Shown one piece after another: positions 50,280 to 64,000 of a DNA stretch of 64,000 nt. A model generated the notes under the pieces. The model was not told where the DNA came from, did not search any database, and saw nothing but the letters and a program-made list of their open reading frames with translations. Position numbers and translations under genes: made by a program. Numbering within the stretch: the stretch's first letter is position 1; each line of letters starts with the position of its first letter. The stretch lies in contig NIVC01000493.1 in assembly GCA_002269645.1 (NCBI GenBank), positions 434,001 to 498,000 of the forward strand, given 5' to 3'. This stretch comes from Macrostomum lignano. Taxonomy: Eukaryota.

Positions 50280-51560
50280 GGGATTTCCCTTGGATACTAA
50301 TATCACTTAGCAAGAGAGAATTGCCTTGGATACTAATATTACTTAGCAACAGGGATTTCCTTTGGATACTAATATCACTTAGCAACAGGGATTTTGCTTT
50401 CCTTAGATACCACTATCGCTTAGAGACAGAAAATTCCTTTGGATACTATTCTCTCTCTTAGCAACAGCAATTTCCCTTGGATACTACTCTCTCTTAGCAA
50501 CAGGGATTTCCCTTGGATACTACTCTCTCTTAGCAACAGGGATTTCCCTTGGATACTACTCTCTCTTAGCAACAGGGATTTCCCTTGGATACTACTCTCT
50601 CTTAGCAACAGGGATTTCCCTTGGATACTACTCTCTCTTAGCAACAGGAACTCACCTTGGATACTACTCTCTCTTAGCAACAGGAATTTCCCTTGGATAC
50701 TACTCTCTCTTAGCAACAGGAATTTCCCTTGGATACTACTATCTCTTAGCAACAGGGATTTCCCTTGGATACTACTCTCTCTTAGCAACAGGAATTTCCC
50801 TTGGATACTACTATCTCTTAGCAACAGGGATTTCCCTTGGATACTACTCTCTCTTAGCAACAGGAATTTCCCTTGGATACTACTATCTCTTAGCAACAGG
50901 GATTTCCCTTGGATACTACTCTCTCTTAGCAACAGGAATTTCCCTTGGATACTACTATCTCTTAGCAACAGGGATTTCCCTTGGATACTACTCTCTCTTA
51001 GCAACAGGAATTTCCCTTGGATACTACTATCTCTTAGCAACAGGGATTTCCCTTGGATACTACTCTCTCTTAGCAACAGGGATTTCCCTTGGATACTACT
51101 CTCTCTTAGCAACAGGAACTCACCTTGGATACTACTCTCTCTTAGCAACAGGAATTTCCCTTGGATACTACTCTCTCTTAGCAACAGGAACTCACCTTGG
51201 ATACTACTCTCTCTTAGCAACAGGAATTTCCCTTGGATACTACTCTCTCTTAGCAACAGGAACTCACCTTGGATACTACTCTCTCTTAGCAACAGGAACT
51301 CACCTTGGATACTACTCTCTCTTAGCAACAGGAACTCACCTTGGATACTACTCTCTCTTAGCAACAGGAATTTCCCTTGGATACTACTCTCTTTTAGCAA
51401 CAGGAACTCACCTTGGATACTACTCTCTCTTAGCAACAGGAACTCACCTTGGATACTACTCTCTCTTAGCAACAGGAACTCACCTTGGATACTACTCTCT
51501 CTTAGCAACAGGAACTCACCTTGGATACTACTCTCTCTTAGCAACAGGGATTTTTTCTAC
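50280..51560. repeat. 36-bp minisatellite (TTTCCCTTGGATACTACTCTCTCTTAGCAACAGGGA)n
   Basis: About 31 homogeneous copies plus degenerate 5' units; explains the 374-aa and 389-aa ORFs. Confidence 0.97.
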
Positions 51561-52129
51561 TATTACAAACTGGGGTTTCCCTTGGATAGCAACAAACATA
51601 TCTCTTGAATAGAATTCCTTTAGCAGCAGGGATTTCCTTAGATTCACCGTTGGTTGTCATTGTGAAACATTGGTCCCTAAAGTACAAAAACTTCTTAAAA
51701 GCCTCAGCATCCATGGTTACCAACAATCTAGAATGCTAGATTTGTGCGTGGTCTTTTATTGCTACGAGCTAATGACAGCAGAATGAAAGTGTAATGATAG
51801 CAGTGCACTCGAATGCACTGAATTGCCTACTTAGTAGTATATGATGCATTATACAGGCATTTATATTTTGTTAAGATTTATGGTTTTTTGTGTATATCCC
51901 GTAGTAGATGTGCATGGTACACAGTCTTAGTAGTTTTAGTAAATTAATAAGCATAACTTTGCATGTCATAAGTAAGCATTTTCTTTGATGTGTTTCTCAT
52001 GCAGCCACTGTATCAGAGCGTATTAAAAGATACACTTAAAATGAAGTGGTGCCCATTGGACACTATGAATACTGGCTAATTCTATGCTGACACCTGATTA
52101 TTGAACAGTTTAAAGAGAATTGCTGTATG

Positions 52130-53950: not shown

Positions 53951-54599
53951 AATTGTTTTTATTTTCAGGTAGTTGGCATTTTTGTAAATAATTTCATTTT
54001 GCTGTTATTCCCCGAAGTAATGGAATCACAGTCACAGTGTTTAAAAATATAAATTTTTCTTAGAAAATCGCTACAGTTTCTAAGAAACCAGCTTTTTTCT
54101 GAAAAGGTGAAACATGGAGAAACTTGTGGTTTATTAGAGTTAGACTTTGATTAGAATTTGAAATAAAAAATGCTACGGAAACAGTTTTTTCGATACATAT
54201 CGGTAGGCTTGGTGTTTTTATTATTGTTTTTCCTTTCAACGCGTCGCTTGCAGGCGGAACTGGGGCAGCGGCCGTTCGACCGACACGCCTGACGAGAGTT
54301 CCGCCGTCTACCGACTCTTGAAATGAAAAAAATGCGTAGGATTAAGGGCCTGAGCACTGGCTGTTTTTTTGCTCTGATTTCATCTCGGAGACTTTTTTGG
54401 GTTTGCTCACGTTGCCTAGGTATTGTTACTCGGATTGGGGCAGTTGCTTTTTCAATTTTTCAGTCGCTGCTATAAAAAGCGTTTTTGTTGATTTATTTAA
54501 AGTATTGGCTAATTAAAAAGGCAATATTTTATTTGGCATGCTTAGCCTATTGTTAATAAGTTTATGTAAATTTAGCTACCCCATGTTTTGTGATTTTGT

Positions 54600-55900
54600 G
54601 ATCTAAGAATCCGGATCCCAAACATGAGAATCCCAATCCCGAATCTGAGAATCCCAATCCCAAATCTGAGAATCCCAATCCCAAATCTGAGAATCCCAAT
54701 CCCAAATCTGAGAATCCCAATCCCAAATCTGAGAATCCCAATCCCAAATCTGAGAATCCCAATCCCAAACATGAGAATCCCAATCCCGAATCTGAGAATC
54801 CCAATCCCGAGTCCCAGAATCCCAAACCCGAATCCGAGAATCCCAAACCCGAATCTGAGAATTCCAAACCCGAATCTGAGAATCCCAAACCCGAATCCGA
54901 GAATCCCAATCCCGAATCCGAGAATCCCAATCCCGAATCTGAGAATTCCAAACCCGAATCTGAGAATCCCAAACCCGAATCCGAGAATCCCAATCCCGAA
55001 TCCCAGAATCCCAAACCCGAATCCGAGAATCCCAAACCCGAATCCGAGAATCCGGATCCGAAACATGAGAATCCCAATCCCGAATCTGAGAATCCCAATC
55101 CCGAATCCGAGAATCCCAAACCCGAATCTGAGAATCCCAAACCCGAATCCGAGAATCCCAAACCCGAATCCGAGAATCCGGATCCGAAACATGAGAATCC
55201 CAATCCCGAATCTGAGAATCCGGATCCGAATCTGAGAATCCCAATGCCGAATCTGAGAATCCCAATCCCGAATCTGAGAATCCGGATCCGAATCTGAGAA
55301 TCCCAATCCCGAATCTGAGAATCCCAATCCCGAATCTGAGAATCCCAAACCCGAATCCGAGAATCCCAAACCCGAATCCGAGAATCCGGATCCGAAACAT
55401 GAGAATCCCAATCCCGAATCTGAGAATCCGGATCCGAATCTGAGAATCCGGATCCGAATCTGAGAATCCCAATGCCAAATCTGAGAATCCCAATCCCGAA
55501 TCTGAGAATCCCAAACCCGAATCCGAGAATCCCAATCCCGAATCTGAGAATCCCAATCCCGAATCTGAGAATCCCAATCCCGAATCTGAGAATCCGGATC
55601 CGAATCTGAGAATCCCAATCCCGAATCCGAGAATCCCAATCCCGAATCTGAGAATCCCAAACCCGAATCTGAGAATCCCAATCCCGAATCTGAGAATCCC
55701 AAACCCGAATCCGAGAATCCGGATCCGAAACATGAGAATTCCAATCCCGAATCCGAGAATCCCAAACCCGAATCCGAGAATCCCAATCCCCAATCCCAGA
55801 ATCCCAAACCCGAATCCGAGAATCCCAATCCCCAATCCCAGAATCCCAAACCCTAATCCGAGAATCCCAATCCCTAATCCCAGAATCCCAATCCCTCAAG
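54600..55900. repeat. 21-bp minisatellite (GAGAATCCCAATCCCGAATCT)n
   Basis: About 60 copies; explains the 400+ aa repeat ORFs. Confidence 0.97.
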
Positions 55901-57079
55901 GGAGAGAGATTCTCAAGGAGTGTGGGGCCGAGAGGCAGATCCAGGGGTGCAAAAGTGATGAATCTTAAAGTGATGATTCTCCTTTATTTACCGCAGCCAA
56001 CCACCTACTTAGCCAATGTCTACCTAATTCCGCTTATGTCGTTGTTGCTTCTTTGAAGAATTGTTTCGTTTCCAAAGCAGAATTTTCACAGAATCAACAT
56101 AAGCTTCATCAGATGAAACCAAGCCTCACCCAATTGCTTATTATATATGTCCTTTATTTATTGTATTTTGGTGTACTTTTTCTGTTTTATCGGATTGCAG
56201 TTTATTCAGAAATCATGGCAGCGCTACTGTAAGTAGCAATTACAGTACTCCGCCCCCCCCCGCATTGTACAGGCGCCAGACGGGGCTCCGGTTGCGCTAC
56301 CCACGTCGGCCGGTTCACTGTGCTGCCTATTGCTGAGTCGGCGGACTCCGCCCAGCAGTCCTAGCCCAGCTGCCGGCACCGGTTCAACCCCCCTCCATCC
56401 CGGTTTGGCCCGTCAATTCACCTCACTTTCTTTTCTCCGTAATTTGTGCGATGAACCAAAAATAACAACATAAAATTCCAGTTTGCATGTTCCAATCTGC
56501 CTACTGCTGTTGCACTGTCAGTAGTATGGCTAGCACGTTTTTATTAAATCGGGTTTTCTTTGGCTTACTCTGATTGCTGCTTTGGTTATTTTTTTAATTC
56601 CTTGTTTCCTATCATCTCCCTTGATGCTTTAAATACCTCCCATATTTCTTAATGATGCAACCTTTTTGTCGTGTAGATCTCCGAAACCAACCATTCCATT
56701 TTTGGTGACGATCGAAGCAATTTGTCTTCTCTAACTAATCTTGTAACTGTCATTAACAGTTGAAATCTATATCGGATCTTATCAGATAGAGCTGTTCCAA
56801 TGTGTCTCAATGCATCCGCCTGCAGGCCAATGGGTCTGCTGCCGTATTGCTTTAAGATCCTCCAACCTCCAACTTATGTTCATATGTCACGTTGCTGTAT
56901 GCATAGAAATTATCATTGTCGCCTTTTGTGTATGTGTGTGATTCATTGGTTTGCAATGCTAGATTTTTGTATTAAATTAATTTTAGGACTTGTCAATATA
57001 AGTGCTTTGGAATCAATTTTTATCAGATCTTGTAATAGAATTGTTTCTAGAATTAAAATTGAATTAATGACATTGTCTA

Positions 57080-57480
57080 TGGCCACTTATAGCTGAGTAA
57101 TGGCACTGTCTATGGTCAGTTGCAGCTGAGTAATGGCACTGCATATGGCCAGTTGCAGCTGAGTAAAGGCACTACTCGTATCTATGGTCAGTTGCAGCTT
57201 AGTAATGGCACTATCTATGGTCAGTTGCAGCTGAGTAAAGGCACTTCATATGGCCAGTTGCAGCTGAGTAAAGGCACTACTCGTATCTATGGTCAGTTGC
57301 AGCTGAGTAATGGCACTGTCTATGGCCAGTTGCAGCTGAGTTATGGCACTGTCTATGGCCAGTTGCAGCTGAGTAATGGCACTGTCTATGGCCAGTTGTG
57401 GCTGGGGTAATGGCACTGTCTATGGCTAGTTGCAGCTGAGTAATGGCACTGTTTATGGCCAGTTGCAGCTGGGATAATGG
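57080..57480. repeat. 33-bp minisatellite (TATGGCCAGTTGCAGCTGAGTAATGGCACTGTC)n
   Basis: About 12 copies. Confidence 0.93.
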
Positions 57481-58239
57481 CACACGAAAAATATAATTCT
57501 ATCTGATACAATTCTTTCTATTCCGATGTGTTCCTACATCCACTCAGTCCCATTTGCTGCCTCTGTGCAATAGTCTCGTCAATCAGTTCCATTTTGCTGC
57601 TTTAATTGCCGGAAATAAATGTACTGACTTCCTAATTGCTGTTGCCATTGCCTGTCCCAATCTGTTCACGTTTTGTTGGGTTTTCCAATTTTTTTCTTCT
57701 AATATCCCCCGCCCTTCAATGTTGCTAACTGCTTATTGCCTTCTGCTTTTGCAAATTTTAGACCTTGGTGTTTAAACACGCGGTTAATGTGCTTTCCATT
57801 ACGCCTTGTCAGACAGAGCAAAATTACTAATAACAGCAGAGTCAATTGTCTCTGTCCCGTGCTTTGCTAATTTAATAATTTATTTATTAACTTCCTCTTC
57901 CAAAACAGAATTGACAAAAGCAGACTAATTGAAATTGCGATTGCATTGGTTGGCCATTTTGCTTTTTAAAAAAACTAGTTTGTAAATATTTTGTTATAAC
58001 TGTTGCAGATCGAATCGCTTAATAGCAGTCCTCAGAGTCTTTGAATCGCTTCTTTCAATTCATAATAAGTTAATATATTTAAATATATAAATATGCCCGA
58101 TTTAAACAAATTCTCACTTCGCCACATTTTTCATGCCAATTGGCAAATTTGCAATCCAGTTGCTTTGTCGCTTCCGGCATCATCTGATTCGAAATTCGCG
58201 CTTGCGGTGCTCGTCTCTTCTCATTCAATCGGTTGGGGC

Positions 58240-59155
58240 GGGCAGTGAAGCGGGGGCGACGGAGGGTGGTGGTGAAGGAGGGTGAGGGGAGAGGAGAGTG
58301 AGGGGGTTAAGGGTGAGGGGGGAGGAGAGTGAGGGGGAGGAGAGTGAGGGGGAGGAGGGGAGGGGGAGGGGGGAGGAGAGTGACGGGGAAGAAGGGTGAC
58401 GGGGGAGGAGAGTGAGGGGATTAAGGGTGAGGGGGAGGAGAGTGAGGGGGAAGGAGGGTGAGAGGGGAGGAGAGTGAGGGGGAGGAGAGTGAGGGGGAGG
58501 AGAGTGAGGGGGAGGGGGAGGAGAGTGAGGGGGAAGGAGGGTGAGAGGGGAGGAGAGTGAGGGGGAGGACGGGGAGGGGAGGGGAGGAGAGTGACGGGGA
58601 AGGAGGGTGACGGGGGAGGAGAGTGAGGGGGGGGAGGGGGAGGGGAGGAGAGTGAGGGGGAGGAGGGAGGAGAGTGAAGGGGACGGAGAGTGAGGGGGTT
58701 AAGGGTGAGGGGGGAGGAGAGTGAGGGGGAAGGAGGGTGAGAGGGGAGGAGAGTGAGGGGGTTAAGGGTGAGGGGGGAGAGTGAGGGGGAAGGAGGGTGA
58801 GAGGGAGGAGAGTGAGGGGGAGGAGAGTGAGGGGAGGAGGGGGAGGGGGAGGAGAGTGAGGGGGAAGGAGGGTGAGAGGGGAGGAGAGTGAGGGGGAGGA
58901 GAGTGAGGGGGAGGAGGGGGAGGGGGAGGGGAGGAGAGTGAGGGGGAGGAGGGGGAGGGGGAGGAGAGTGACGGGGAAGGAGGGTGACGGGGGAGGAGAG
59001 TGAGGGGGCGGAGGGGGAGGGGAGGAGAGTGAGGGGGAGGAGAATGACGCGGAAGGAGAGTGACGGGGGAAGGAGAGTGGGGGGAAGGAAGATGAGGGGG
59101 GAGGAGAGTGAGGGGGAAGAGTGACAGGGGAGCAGAATGACACGGAGGGGCAAGA
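58240..59155. repeat. Polypurine (GA-rich) tract with degenerate GAGAGTGAGGGGGAG units
   Basis: About 900 bp almost entirely G/A. Confidence 0.95.
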
Positions 59156-59174
59156 GTGACTGAAAGAGGGCCCC

Positions 59175-59310
59175 CTATGGCGCTAAACTGGGTTGCCCTA
59201 TGGCGCTAAACTGAGTTGCCTTATAGCGCTAAACTGAGTTGCCTTATATATGGCGCTAAACTAAGAGACCTGAGGCGCTAAACGGAGAGGCCTGAGGCGC
59301 TAAACTGAAT
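59175..59310. repeat. Short GCGCTAAACTGAGT-core repeat, array 1
   Basis: About 6 degenerate copies. Confidence 0.85.
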
Positions 59311-60054: not shown

Positions 60055-60400
60055 AAACTGAGTGCACTGTGGCGCTAAACTGAGTGCCCTGTGGCGCTAA
60101 ACTGGGTGCCTTCATGACACTAAACTGAGTGCCTTCATGACACTAAACTGAGTGCCCTGTGGCGCTAAACTGAGTGCCTTCATGACACTAAACTGAGTGC
60201 CTTCATGACACTAAACTGAGTGCCTTCATGACACTAAACTGAGTGCCTTCATGACACTAAACTGAGTGCCTTCATGACACTAAACTGAGTGCCTTCATGA
60301 CACTAAACTGAGTGCCTTCATGACACTAAACTGAGTGCCTTCATGACACTAAACTGAGTGCCTTCATGACACTAAACTGAGTGCCTGTGTAGCTAAACTG
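60055..60400. repeat. 23-bp minisatellite (TAAACTGAGTGCCTTCATGACAC)n, same core as 59175-59310
   Basis: About 15 copies. Confidence 0.93.
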
Positions 60401-60689
60401 GGGTCCTCAAATACTAAAACTGTTACTCAAATATGGAGAAAATTTATTAATCCTTAAAATTCGCCCAATTCTCAGAAGCTCGGCACTACTATATGAACCC
60501 GAATGGCGCGATTTTGGAGGTGAGGTGGGTGTCAACCCTCCTCGCCTCTCATTGGCTGGCGCCCCGATCACTAGGTGATCGATACCCGTATCGATATCGG
60601 CGCTCGGCGCGCGCGCGCGCCGCAGGCGCCAAGCGCCGCAGGCGACCCTCCCCAGCCGCAGGCGCACCTACCGATATTAGATCCCAATA

Positions 60690-60910
60690 AATCAATCAGA
60701 TCCCAAATCAATCAGATCCCAAATCAATCAGATCCCAAGCGCACCCTCCCGAGCCGCAGGCGCCCATGCCGCAGGCACCCCGAGTGTACACTCTACCGAG
60801 CCGCAGGCACCCCGAGTGTACACTCTACCGAGCCGCAGGCACCCCGAGTGTACACTCTACCGAGCCAAAGGTACACTCTACCACTCTCCCGATATGTACA
60901 CTCTACCACT
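60690..60910. repeat. GC-rich repeat cluster: 16-bp x3 and 32-bp x3 containing the palindrome GAGTGTACACTC
   Basis: AATCAATCAGATCCCA repeats; CGAGTGTACACTCTACCGAGCCGCAGGCACCC at 60781 and 60813. Confidence 0.85.
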
Positions 60911-61743
60911 CTTCCGATATGTAGTCAACGATATTAGGCTAGTGAAAACTACTTATAGTAGATGAAATTGCGTATATTTACATAAAAATGTAGATAAAAC
61001 ATATTGGTAGGTGAATAATGACGCATATTGCATATTAAAATGTACATATTGGAGCATATGAGCAGCAAAAACACACAATGTAGGTGTATGGGCAGAAATA
61101 GACAAAGCAGGTACTGTAGGCGCTACATAGGTGGAAATACACACAGCAGGTTTACAAAGTGTACTTTCGATACATATCGGGTTAATGTATAAAGCAGGTT
61201 TACAAGGCATGCATAAGGTGTAGTTGTATAATACAGGCACGCATGTATAATCAGATTATAGGCAAACGCCCAGGTGCAACAGACGCGTAAATAATGTCAC
61301 ACCGACTAAAGAGTAAATATTGTCTAACCCGCAGGTGCATAAAAATTTTAAACAAAAGCGGTTCGGGGAAATCCCAAAAGGGAGGTTCACGGCCTAATGA
61401 CCCGATATACTTTCAACACAATTAAACCCACAAGTGGGCTAGAAAAATGGACAACGTATTTCGATTGCGCTATCAGTACGCTAATCAGCGCAGCAAGTTC
61501 ATGTCAGGAGTTCTACTCCAAGAGGCGGACCGCTGGGCCACAAACCGCCCCGAGGGAATAGGTGTCAAATGGGAGTTTTAACACTTGAGGGGATCCCGCT
61601 CAATGTACAGTGGAGGTGCCAAATGAGTAAGGACCCTAAGTACAGTGCGGGCGTAAAACCATTTTCATCCCCACGAGTCAAGGGATCCCAAGTGGGCACA
61701 TAGGGGAATCCCAGGCGTGCAAAGACAGATCCTTATCTTTCAC

Positions 61744-62137
61744 TCACTCCCGAAAGCCATACGGGCGGCTAGCGGCCCCATACACCCTCTTAGTCATTAC
61801 GCGCTGGAAAGTCTTGTCCATCTCGAGGGTCCGGATTGTACAGCTAGCCTTATCGCGCCTGAACTGGGCCTGGGGCAGGCGTACAGTCCCGCCGTGACGC
61901 AGAATTTCCTGCAGCTCGTCCTCGCGCTCGGAAATCTCGGGGGTGACTCTGATGCCCTTGCACTTGAGCACCGAGTACAGCGACCCGTCGGGCTTCTCCA
62001 CCACGTACCGGTAGAGCTTGGGGCCTCCCGTGGTGAACTGTACCATGCGGCAGCCAGCAGGTACCTCGTCAGTCCACTGCCCCAAACTCGAACCGCCCGG
62101 AGGCTCGTACTCGCCCGGAGAGCAGCGGTATACGACC
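61744..62137 (-). CDS. Protein-primed DNA polymerase B, last exon
   Basis: Acceptor CCTCCCAG at 62138; S-VVYRC..LGQWTDE..GPKLY..LKCKGI..KR..SRPYGF-stop. Confidence 0.92.
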
Positions 62138-62207
62138 CTGGGAGGAGGAGAAGGATAAAGTGTTAAGGGGAGAAAGAGAGACAGAGACAGTTGAAAAAAT
62201 TACTCAC

Positions 62208-62501
62208 GAATCAGTATCGGCGTAAATGACGCGGGTTCCTAGACCCTCCAGAGCCTCGTAGAGTCGCAGCCGGGCGTGGGAGGTGGTGAAAACGCCAATA
62301 GGTACATTAGCGTACTTGAACGCCCGCTCGCCAGCACCGCCAAATCGGGGCTTGTACTCGAGCATCATGAAGCTCTCCCCAATTGGCTCGCACGACTTGA
62401 CCTTGATCGAGGGGTCGGTCAGGCGCTGCAGCCACGCCTCGTAGCTGTCCACAATCTCTGTGGAGGTCAGGTCGTCGCGCTGGCAGAATTTGCCCCAGAG
62501 C
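62208..62501 (-). CDS. Protein-primed DNA polymerase B, exon (motif B end to motif C)
   Basis: S-LWGKF..NVPIGVFTTSHARLRLY..VIYADTDS; acceptor CCCTGCAG at 62502, donor TC|GTGAGT at 62207. Confidence 0.93.
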
Positions 62502-62571
62502 CTGCAGGGAAAAATAAATTTTTTTTTGTAAGTAGAAAAACACGGCCCCCACTGCAAGTAGAAAAACTTAC

Positions 62572-63119
62572 GAGTTTAGAAAAATCTTGGCCACAAAGCG
62601 CAAGCCAGGATTCTCCTCCACCTTTTCCAGCCGGACGCCTTCGCGCTCGAAAAAGCTGGCCATGTAGGCAGCCTTGGCGTCCTCAGCCATCCCCGGCGAA
62701 CCGCTAGACTCGGCTTTGAGCTTTAAAAAAGTGTTTACGTAATCTGCAAACAGGCCCGTGCGAGTCTCGGTCCAATAGGCCAGGGCATGAACTGACTGCA
62801 GCTTGTAACCCAACTGCAGGGCTTTGTGGAGCTCTGGGGTCGACCACGTGCCGCGGAGCATTCTCTCAGCGTCAGTGTGTGTACACTCGCTGCTGCACTG
62901 GGTCTCCATGCAGACGCGGCAGAGGCCGAAAACCAGCTTCTTGTTAATCTTGGCGGGCAGTAGCGGGATGTGGAGATTGGTTGGCGGCAGAATCGACACC
63001 TCGGCGATGCCAAAATACCGGGCCAGCTGCAGCTCATCCAGTAGATGAGGCTCGGGGTGGTGAACCGGGTGCCCGACCGGGTACTTGTCAAACTTGTTGA
63101 CAGTCGGGTAGAGCGACAC
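62572..63119 (-). CDS. Protein-primed DNA polymerase B, exon (motif A to motif B)
   Basis: VSLYPTVN..YPVGHP..GTW..PEL..YVNTFLKLKAESSG..NPGLRFVAKIFLNS; acceptor CCCCTAG at 63120, donor TC|GTAAGT at 62571. Confidence 0.93.
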
Positions 63120-63188
63120 CTAGGGGATAAGGATAAGATAAACTCAAACGCATGTCAACTGTGTGTGTGTACAAGTGTACAAACTTAC

Positions 63189-63998
63189 CACATCCCGATA
63201 GCGCAGCTCTACAGTCTCGGTGGCCTCGGCGTGCGGGACAAAAGCCTCGGTACGGCCGCCAAACAGGGCATCCTCCAGGCGAATAGGCTGCTGGACTGGC
63301 GCTCCCTCGTCCTGATAGTCGTGCTCCCACAGAACACGCACATTGTATGCAGTGGAGAGCAGCCGGGTGAAGCGCTCAGTCTCCTCATAAATTGCTCGCA
63401 TTGGCTGGTTCTTGAGCGGGTGCAGCACGTCGCCGTTGGGGAAGCACTTGGGACAGCCATGGAAGAAGCAGCCATGAAACTGCAGCACTGTCCTGGTCTC
63501 TGGGTCGAAGCCGTCGACCTTACGGCCCATGGCGAAAGCCTCGCCGCCCGAGTCCGCTGTCCGCAACCGGCCGCCAAACTCGGTTGCATTTAAATGTGCC
63601 AGCCAGCACCGCGCCTTGTGCGACTGTACATCGGACCGGCGGGAAATCACCCCAAGAGTGTTGGGCTCCATAAACTTGGTGGTGAATACCGACATGGCCA
63701 AGCCCGCAATGGTGTTGGATTGAACAAATGCGTCCAGTCCGCAAATGTCCTTAATCAGGCGGGTGTACTTTAGACAGCCTTCCCGCAAAATTAACGTGTC
63801 CTGCAGGCAGTAGTCCAGGTACTCCTTATTGAAATTAAACACCTGTCCCTCCTGCTTGGCCAGCCAGTCGGCGATGGAGTCATGCTGCTTATTCTTCTTC
63901 CCGCCGTACATATCAATTGAGCAGTAGGGACCGACGTACCCCCAATTTTGAGGCTGGTTAAACACGTGCGGGAAATCTCCTTTGGTCAGTTGGGTGCC
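63189..63998 (-). CDS. Protein-primed DNA polymerase B, exon (exonuclease end, Vsr-like insert, pre-motif A); open to the window edge
   Basis: KGDFPHVFN..YCLQDTLIL..TIAGLAM..KVDG..QFHGCFFHGCPKC..LFGGRTE..YRDV; donor GTG|GTAAGT at 63188. Spliced total in window is 2046 nt = 681 aa plus stop. Confidence 0.93.
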
Positions 63999-64000
63999 CA

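Follow-up and report, generated by a model that had tools for sequence, protein, structure and literature searches.

Three introns of a Macrostomum lignano gene for a family-B DNA polymerase of the protein-primed type (pPolB) fall in catalytic motifs A, B and C, next to the classical intein insertion sites, which raises the question of how they came to be placed there. The prevailing view is that spliceosomal introns have no preference for conserved sites and that Polinton core genes are intron-free, whereas here one gene shows a roughly tenfold intron excess in active-site codons, at several offsets and in unrelated lineages, and how and why new introns become fixed is now testable at one 15-nt target. 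The whole stretch of DNA analysed, termed the window, comprises 64,000 nucleotides of contig NIVC01000493.1 (positions 434,001 to 498,000 of the forward strand); coordinates prefixed with G000:C493 lie on the contig itself. Sources marked “in part” are cited for the portions accessible to us.

A Polymerase Gene Interrupted in Its Catalytic Motifs

The end of the window holds, on the minus strand, the C-terminal part of the pPolB (Pfam DNA_pol_B_2), with the following features of the gene inside and upstream of the window (a slash marks an insertion point):

61744..62137, minus strand: last pPolB exon, with the thumb region and ending at the stop, as given by RNA-type contigs
62138..62207, minus strand: intron C, GT..AG, 70 nt long, splitting the Ser codon of motif C (YADTDS) in phase 2
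62208..62501, minus strand: exon running from xWGK of motif B to YADTD of motif C
62502..62571, minus strand: intron B, GT..AG, 70 nt long, splitting the Ser codon of motif B (KxxxNS-xWGK) in phase 2
62572..63119, minus strand: exon running from VSLYP of motif A to KxxxN of motif B, with a match to Pfam DNA_pol_B_2 (E 1.2e-12)
63120..63188, minus strand: intron A, GT..AG, 69 nt long, interrupting motif A (DV/VSLYP) in phase 0
63189..64000, minus strand: 3′ part of a 640-codon intron-free exon that extends to G000:C493:499108
63318..63545, minus strand: VSR-like nuclease insert in the pPolB (E..D..HGCxxHGC), placed by motif residues, bounds approximate
G000:C493:500024-500784, 499909-499978 and 499109-499340, minus strand: upstream pPolB introns of 761, 70 and 232 nt, with two mini-exons

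A preliminary description of this DNA had placed three introns in motifs A, B and C at 3, 2 and 8 nt from the classical intein sites. Both statements are borne out, the offsets being −3 nt for intron A, +2 nt for intron B and +8 nt for intron C. We take the pol-a intein site to lie before the Ser of SLYP and the pol-b site between N and S. The pol-c site is YGD/TDS (PMC549080, in part). The description had also noted no intron in the remaining ~2 kb. The 640-codon exon is intron-free, and its part in the window carries a Cys-rich region, the exonuclease motifs and the VSR-like insert. The gene continues past the window, however, and three more introns lie there, upstream, at non-conserved sites, within roughly the first 225 codons, so that three of the six introns of the gene are in motifs A/B/C. 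The first and third upstream introns are skipped in RNA-type contigs, and the second is backed by loose ends. The name VSR rests on the source labels of homologues and on PMC10748475 (in part); a search of solved structures with the insert gave no match.

In all three RNA-type runs (X1, X3 and X9, each of another study) the contigs leave out precisely 69, 70 and 70 nt, and a fourth run, flat and deep like DNA, contains none of the three joints, the run types being an inferred assignment judged by these joints. The introns are thus removed exactly in the RNA-type runs and left in place in the DNA-like run, and they have the GT..AG ends and pyrimidine tract of the U2 type: they are spliceosomal introns, with usual chemistry and unusual placement. 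In the window copy of the gene the reading frame is also shifted close to where exon 3 begins (L051 near 5650). This place is often read differently in public runs, the DNA-like one included, and the shift is therefore either an assembly error or a copy-specific lesion.

The Host Element and Its Copies

The pPolB gene sits within a 9,478-bp element with terminal inverted repeats (TIRs) at G000:C493:494485-503962, whose left end lies in the window:

60479..60484, unstranded: left copy of the 6-bp target-site duplication (TSD), right copy at G000:C493:503963-503968
60485..61387, unstranded: left TIR, 903 bp, 100% identical to the right TIR at G000:C493:503060-503962

The element terminus starts ACTACT, three additional full copies are co-linear, and 6-bp TSDs are present too in eight further copies or related elements. 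Besides the pPolB, the element has two ORFs, one of 178 aa (weak PC4 match, E 0.19) and one that is spliced and of unknown kind. Its protein-primed PolB (PF03175), long TIRs and 6-bp TSD are those of Polintons/Mavericks (adintovirus-like elements). The Polintons with a VSR insert in their pPolB2 likewise have PF03175 with Exo and A/B/C motifs, and share with the element here the VSR-like insert, the long TIRs and the 6-bp TSD (PMC10748475; PMC8097293; PMC8502044; all in part). Unlike Polintons, the element has no ORF or Pfam match for a retroviral-type integrase between its TIRs, no capsid, packaging ATPase or protease genes were seen in its 9.5 kb, and its termini read ACTAC, not AGTAGT. Intact vertebrate Mavericks, moreover, are described as intron-free, whereas the pPolB here has six introns (PMC8097293, in part). 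The element is best read as an integrase-less Polinton derivative mobilised in trans. No helper combining these termini with an integrase came to light among the 40 of 266 terminus candidates that were scored, 20 of them examined, and the terminus had no match in five other families.

For the exon between introns A and B, the assembly contains 45 matches at 94% identity or more, part of which may be haplotype duplicates. Another 26 near-full matches have 67-72% identity and represent a sister family. Introns A, B and C are retained in all 30 close copies examined. The sister family (about 70% identical) agrees in the position and phase of each intron, whereas the intron interiors are unrelated (15 loci show A, 16 show B and 13 show C, a few with mutated splice sites), and no precise loss of a motif intron was seen there. 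When 29 copies are compared with the window copy, gap columns make up 8.0% of the introns vs 0.05% of the exons, and substitutions 1.7% vs 1.8%. An origin of intron A from duplicated VSLY codons, as its first 12 nt read VSLY, was rejected, this feature being absent in the sister family.

Intron Position Tested Against Chance

The preliminary description had proposed that intron position be tested against conservation, and had allowed that many introns at non-conserved sites would make the coincidence unremarkable. The three upstream introns are indeed of that kind; the coincidence nevertheless survives, and it is replicated in an independent set. Within the gene, with 30 homologues of <65% identity as the conservation reference (host models excluded), the probability that at least three of six introns fall in the strict motifs A/B/C is 1.1e-4. 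When conservation windows of 5, 7, 11 and 21 codons are used instead, the values are 0.005, 0.001, 0.027 and 0.26, so that clustering at the widest is not significant. Being post hoc and based on three events, this test is suggestive only.

The independent set, which provides the stronger test, comes from a metagenome scan with a pattern located between motifs A and B; of the 109 related loci, the best 80 were used (about 25-45% identity). A spliced profile aligner, which recovered the three introns of the window exactly, was applied to all 80 loci, and a GC and frame filter accepted 65 of its calls, including eight from the two host subfamilies, and rejected 74, mostly in-frame protein inserts. 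Among these best 80 of 109 loci, an intron interrupts motif B in 20 of the 77 that cover it and motif C in 12 of 71 (two of the former and one of the latter fail the GC filter). Motif A, as conserved as B, is rarely interrupted (1 of 79). ORF-based surveys would accordingly truncate or miss about a quarter of the sampled pPolB-group loci (20/77). With the window included, the offsets are +2, +3, +7, +8, +10 and +12 from N/S in motif B (six within 11 nt), −2, +4 and +8 from D/T in motif C, and −3 and +2 in motif A, all within 12 nt of the classical intein junctions.

Counted per lineage, 15 of 43 events lie in A/B/C, where five context-matched nulls predict 1.0-1.2 (0/200,000 draws each) and a null limited to conserved codons predicts 3.9 (again 0/200,000). 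When the window family is left out, shared positions are taken once and draws are matched for the base preceding the intron, eight of 33 distinct positions are in A/B/C vs 0.76 expected (0/500,000 draws); with no filter and every aligner call, the figure is 10/78 vs 2.0 expected (P 3e-5). The 25 positions outside A/B/C are still shifted toward conserved windows (P 8e-4). Five loci have 1,015-1,218 stop-free codons ahead of the motif-B intron, so that these lineages are intron-poor and frame-breaking introns were not missed in their variable regions; introns that are in frame and stop-free could have escaped there. L126 has an unbroken integrase ORF and an unbroken protease-like ORF as well. 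A separate set of 140 proteins (150 less six host-like or repetitive rows and four duplicates of the earlier set) gave a similar picture, as 49 proteins end prematurely at motif B or beyond it, some perhaps at contig ends, and 12 of these ends fall in the five motif-B columns (P 1e-9), and five proteins end N-R-stop, as an AG/GTAA donor would read. The motif introns of the window are real, spliced and non-random, and exemplify a pattern that recurs across this pPolB group.

Additional, less marked intron clusters were found in the VSR H-G-C motif, with four offsets (L151, L153, L160, L169, L184), and in the YxGG motif, with two (L160, L184, L189). Most clusters lie within the top 1-7% of nucleotide conservation, where the commonest letters of the peak windows reach about 70-79% only. 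The two highest conservation peaks are without an intron, one of them because it was the search pattern and could not hold one. Scans of viral contigs found no relative. One predicted protein, P0137, seems to read through an in-frame intron in the motif-B Ser, possibly a seventh offset, as judged from the protein only.

Distribution on the Polymerase Tree

A tree was built from 425 polymerase columns of 109 rows, four of which were dropped as too short, and also from a 62-row set. Rows with a B intron appear in about nine places among intronless rows, with nine presence/absence changes among the rows seen as DNA. AU tests in IQ-TREE rejected a single clade for all B-intron rows (p 3e-112) and likewise three same-offset pairs as clades (p 0.0006, 0.003 and 0.009), under LG+G4 with fast constrained searches, with weakly supported deep nodes and without distinguishing gain from loss. 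The intron-bearing lineages hence do not form one clade. Identical positions nevertheless recur in distant lineages, namely in three for motif C and in two each for B at +7, +3 and +2. The intronless L181 and L185 group strongly beside or inside a clade that has introns in B as well as in C, so that an intron may be lost precisely, and the intron of L179 is 1 nt off from that of its own clade, so sliding probably occurs too.

Search for Traces of Homing Elements

A derivation of the introns from homing elements that target conserved catalytic codons had been suggested at the outset. The link to homing gains strong indirect support from the unrelated pPolB lineages with other offsets in the same motifs, whereas descent from such elements left no trace in our searches. 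The introns are 55-144 nt long and AT-rich (one 263-nt call is repeat-filled), and no large insert was present at A/B/C in 80 loci. Eleven longer homologues contained no intein or homing-endonuclease gene (HEG) domain, which is weak evidence, and 18 loci gave no Rfam match to a group I/II ribozyme at E<=0.5. An in-frame Hint domain at the fixed junction was not seen either, the 70-nt inserts being removed at the RNA level and lying off the junctions.

Comparison of 50 introns revealed, between different sites, only low-complexity matches of 15-24 nt. Terminal inverted repeats were absent from them as a class, nothing marked these 50 as introners, and the junction repeats (mean 2 nt, maximum 6, n = 50) carried no repair signature. 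The VSR-like residues are kept about equally often, in 12/17 rows with a B intron vs 38/43 without any intron, so that the element's own VSR domain does not predict intron presence, and a correlation between VSR integrity and introns was discarded.

Origin of the Motif Introns

The best explanation at present, which we hold tentatively and at somewhat less than an even chance, is that the introns were gained repeatedly and independently and became fixed because they break the recognition sites of homing-type nucleases. A candidate nuclease of a competing element, whether intein- or intron-borne, free-standing, or the in-frame VSR/EndoVII domain of pPolB2, would cut at conserved motif codons, and repair of the cut would insert filler DNA. 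In a catalytic motif, only an insertion that the spliceosome can remove would leave a working enzyme; such an insertion would also destroy the cut site and so, we propose, would spread. The wider picture, in which Polintons wage homing-endonuclease warfare over polymerase genes and de novo spliceosomal introns at cut sites confer immunity, we regard as a real possibility, with slightly more reserve. If it is true, selection would have a way to bring introns into conserved sites, and resistance to gene drives would exist in a natural form.

Several published observations provide the setting for nuclease escape. Inteins and group I introns favour conserved sites, spliceosomal introns do not, and homing endonucleases target such conserved codons (PMC2814812, in part). 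Vsr-like folds include a homing-endonuclease family (PMC3239194, in part), polinton-like viruses carry HEGs (PMC12220804, in part), pPolB2 proteins bear HNH or VSR domains and pPolB genes replace one another between Polintons (PMC10748475, in part), and an insertion can mask a cut site in viral competition (PMC5871332; PMC11296320; both in part). In favour of the nuclease reading we count, besides the position tests and the tree above, two co-resident intronless pPolBs with Endonuclease VII domains; against it stand the absence of repair repeats, the absence of a VSR-intron correlation, the rarity of interruptions in motif A, the lack of an intein or HEG domain in the 11 longer homologues and of large inserts at A/B/C in the 80 loci, and the two top conservation peaks without an intron.

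The identical positions in distant lineages and the 1-nt offsets within one clade fit shared ancestry and sliding, and thus a different history, in which one ancient intron per motif, present in the clade ancestor, slid by a few bases and was precisely lost in most lineages. The 1-nt neighbours in a G-run, the placement of L181 and L185, and the fact that all three positions are common to both host subfamilies agree with it as well. We consider it unlikely, since it needs at least five slides inside invariant codons and loss in 57/77 loci of a DNA-replicating element, leaves the ancestral placement in B and C without explanation, and accounts neither for the extra VSR (four offsets) and YxGG clusters nor for the conserved shift of the 25 other positions. 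That the introns are shrunken homing elements, either group I/II introns or inteins captured by the spliceosome, would suit the closeness of all A/B/C positions to the classical intein junctions (<=12 nt), and group I introns do occur in some polinton-like viruses (PMC12220804, in part). It appears distinctly unlikely given introns of 55-144 nt that are AT-rich, match no ribozyme and share no sequence beyond short low-complexity matches, the lack of any intermediate in 80 loci, and offsets that differ from the intein junctions. A survivor bias, by which introns arrive anywhere and imprecise deletion clears variable regions and is lethal in catalytic codons, accounts for the general shift to conserved windows, and is in keeping with the scatter of introns in lineages that have many of them (12 in L184, five or more accepted in L169). 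It does not account for the excess in B and C: the conserved-codon null is rejected (B 8 vs 2.0, P 6e-4; A/B/C 15 vs 3.9), interruptions are rare in motif A and in the exonuclease motifs, and the three upstream introns of the window gene persist at variable sites, which makes it improbable.

It is decidedly improbable, in our view, that the introns serve to interrupt the last stretches in which divergent Polintons still resemble each other in DNA, and thereby prevent cross-silencing by small RNAs or ectopic recombination. Most clusters do lie at the top 1-7% of nucleotide conservation, but commonest letters of about 70-79% in the peak windows are low for guide pairing, and the spliced mRNA would still be a target. 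The regulated splicing switch for polymerase activity, also put forward in the preliminary description, draws on the fact that retaining any one intron would abolish activity, and position would matter in the part of the sister family where intron A is in frame and stop-free. Most motif introns, however, are frame-shifting or stop-bearing, so that retention anywhere upstream of motif C inactivates equally, and the switch does not explain the intron positions. As the main contigs of the three runs are also fully spliced (contigs show neither levels nor retention), and as intron substitutions are unconstrained and indels many in the copy comparison above, we rate this idea as highly improbable. 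Chance, proto-splice-site bias or intron transfer from host family-B polymerase genes, finally, can be given hardly any credence, and all three are refuted to the extent tested. There are only three events in the gene, the 21-codon test is not significant and many sites follow a G in Gly or Asp codons; the context-matched nulls are nonetheless rejected. In three host replicative polymerases no motif A, B or C is interrupted (0/9), and transfer from these Pol delta/alpha/zeta-type genes, whose names are inferred from motifs and which match exon by exon, was rejected on this ground.

Relation to Known Systems

With PolB inteins the introns here share three active-site positions, from which they lie no more than 12 nt away. 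The introns differ in being about 70 nt long, removed by the spliceosome and without endonuclease or self-splicing domain, and they have several offsets per motif where inteins keep to one fixed junction. The intron of the chlorovirus DNA polymerase gene is likewise of host type, in a viral family-B gene and kept in position between clades, but it is one intron, in the RNA-primed PolB of a giant virus (PMC7019647; PMC2949830; both in part). Dinoflagellate eupolintoviral introners are, as here, spliceosomal introns in Polinton-type elements; introners form repeated transposon families, whereas the introns here are mutually unrelated, lack TIRs as a class and are motif-clustered (PMC12166617, in part). 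In the collaborative or intronless homing of phages and giant viruses, an endonuclease-free intron masks the cut site in an essential gene, which is the working principle proposed here, though known only for self-splicing introns (PMC11296320; PMC5871332; both in part). A literature search (full text, few subscription papers, main text only) found nothing on introns in Polinton polymerase motifs, and the accessible parts of PMC8502044 and PMC10710043 hold nothing on the motif-intron pattern.

Other Features of the Genome and the Window

Two co-resident pPolB genes without introns (L055:3426-7268 and L059:1488-5921) carry the Endonuclease VII domain in frame, and the neighbour genes include a dUTPase (L059), a Mab-21-like gene (L052) and an F5/8 gene (L056). 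A degraded, AT-rich pPolB of another lineage (L047 / G000:C234) has no introns at A, B and C. Both host subfamilies have ACTAC termini, and two co-resident Polinton families the usual AGTAGT (termini of the element, L087-L088, C114 and C2506).

A second element class (L091-L099, L105-L110) has the terminal ~300 bp and 6-bp TSDs in common with the element and is without a pPolB. Its members are near-perfect palindromes of 7-9.3 kb, with arms of 3-4.6 kb that are about 99% identical, and are probably non-autonomous foldback passengers. In the ORF of unknown kind, a 91-nt GT-AG intron (L051:8326-8416, plus strand) is removed in all three RNA-type runs. The host DNA left of the element contains, within the window, tandem-repeat arrays that yield long spurious ORFs:

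50407-51612, 54562-55983, 57093-57450, 58221-59180 and 60060-60400: tandem-repeat arrays in host DNA
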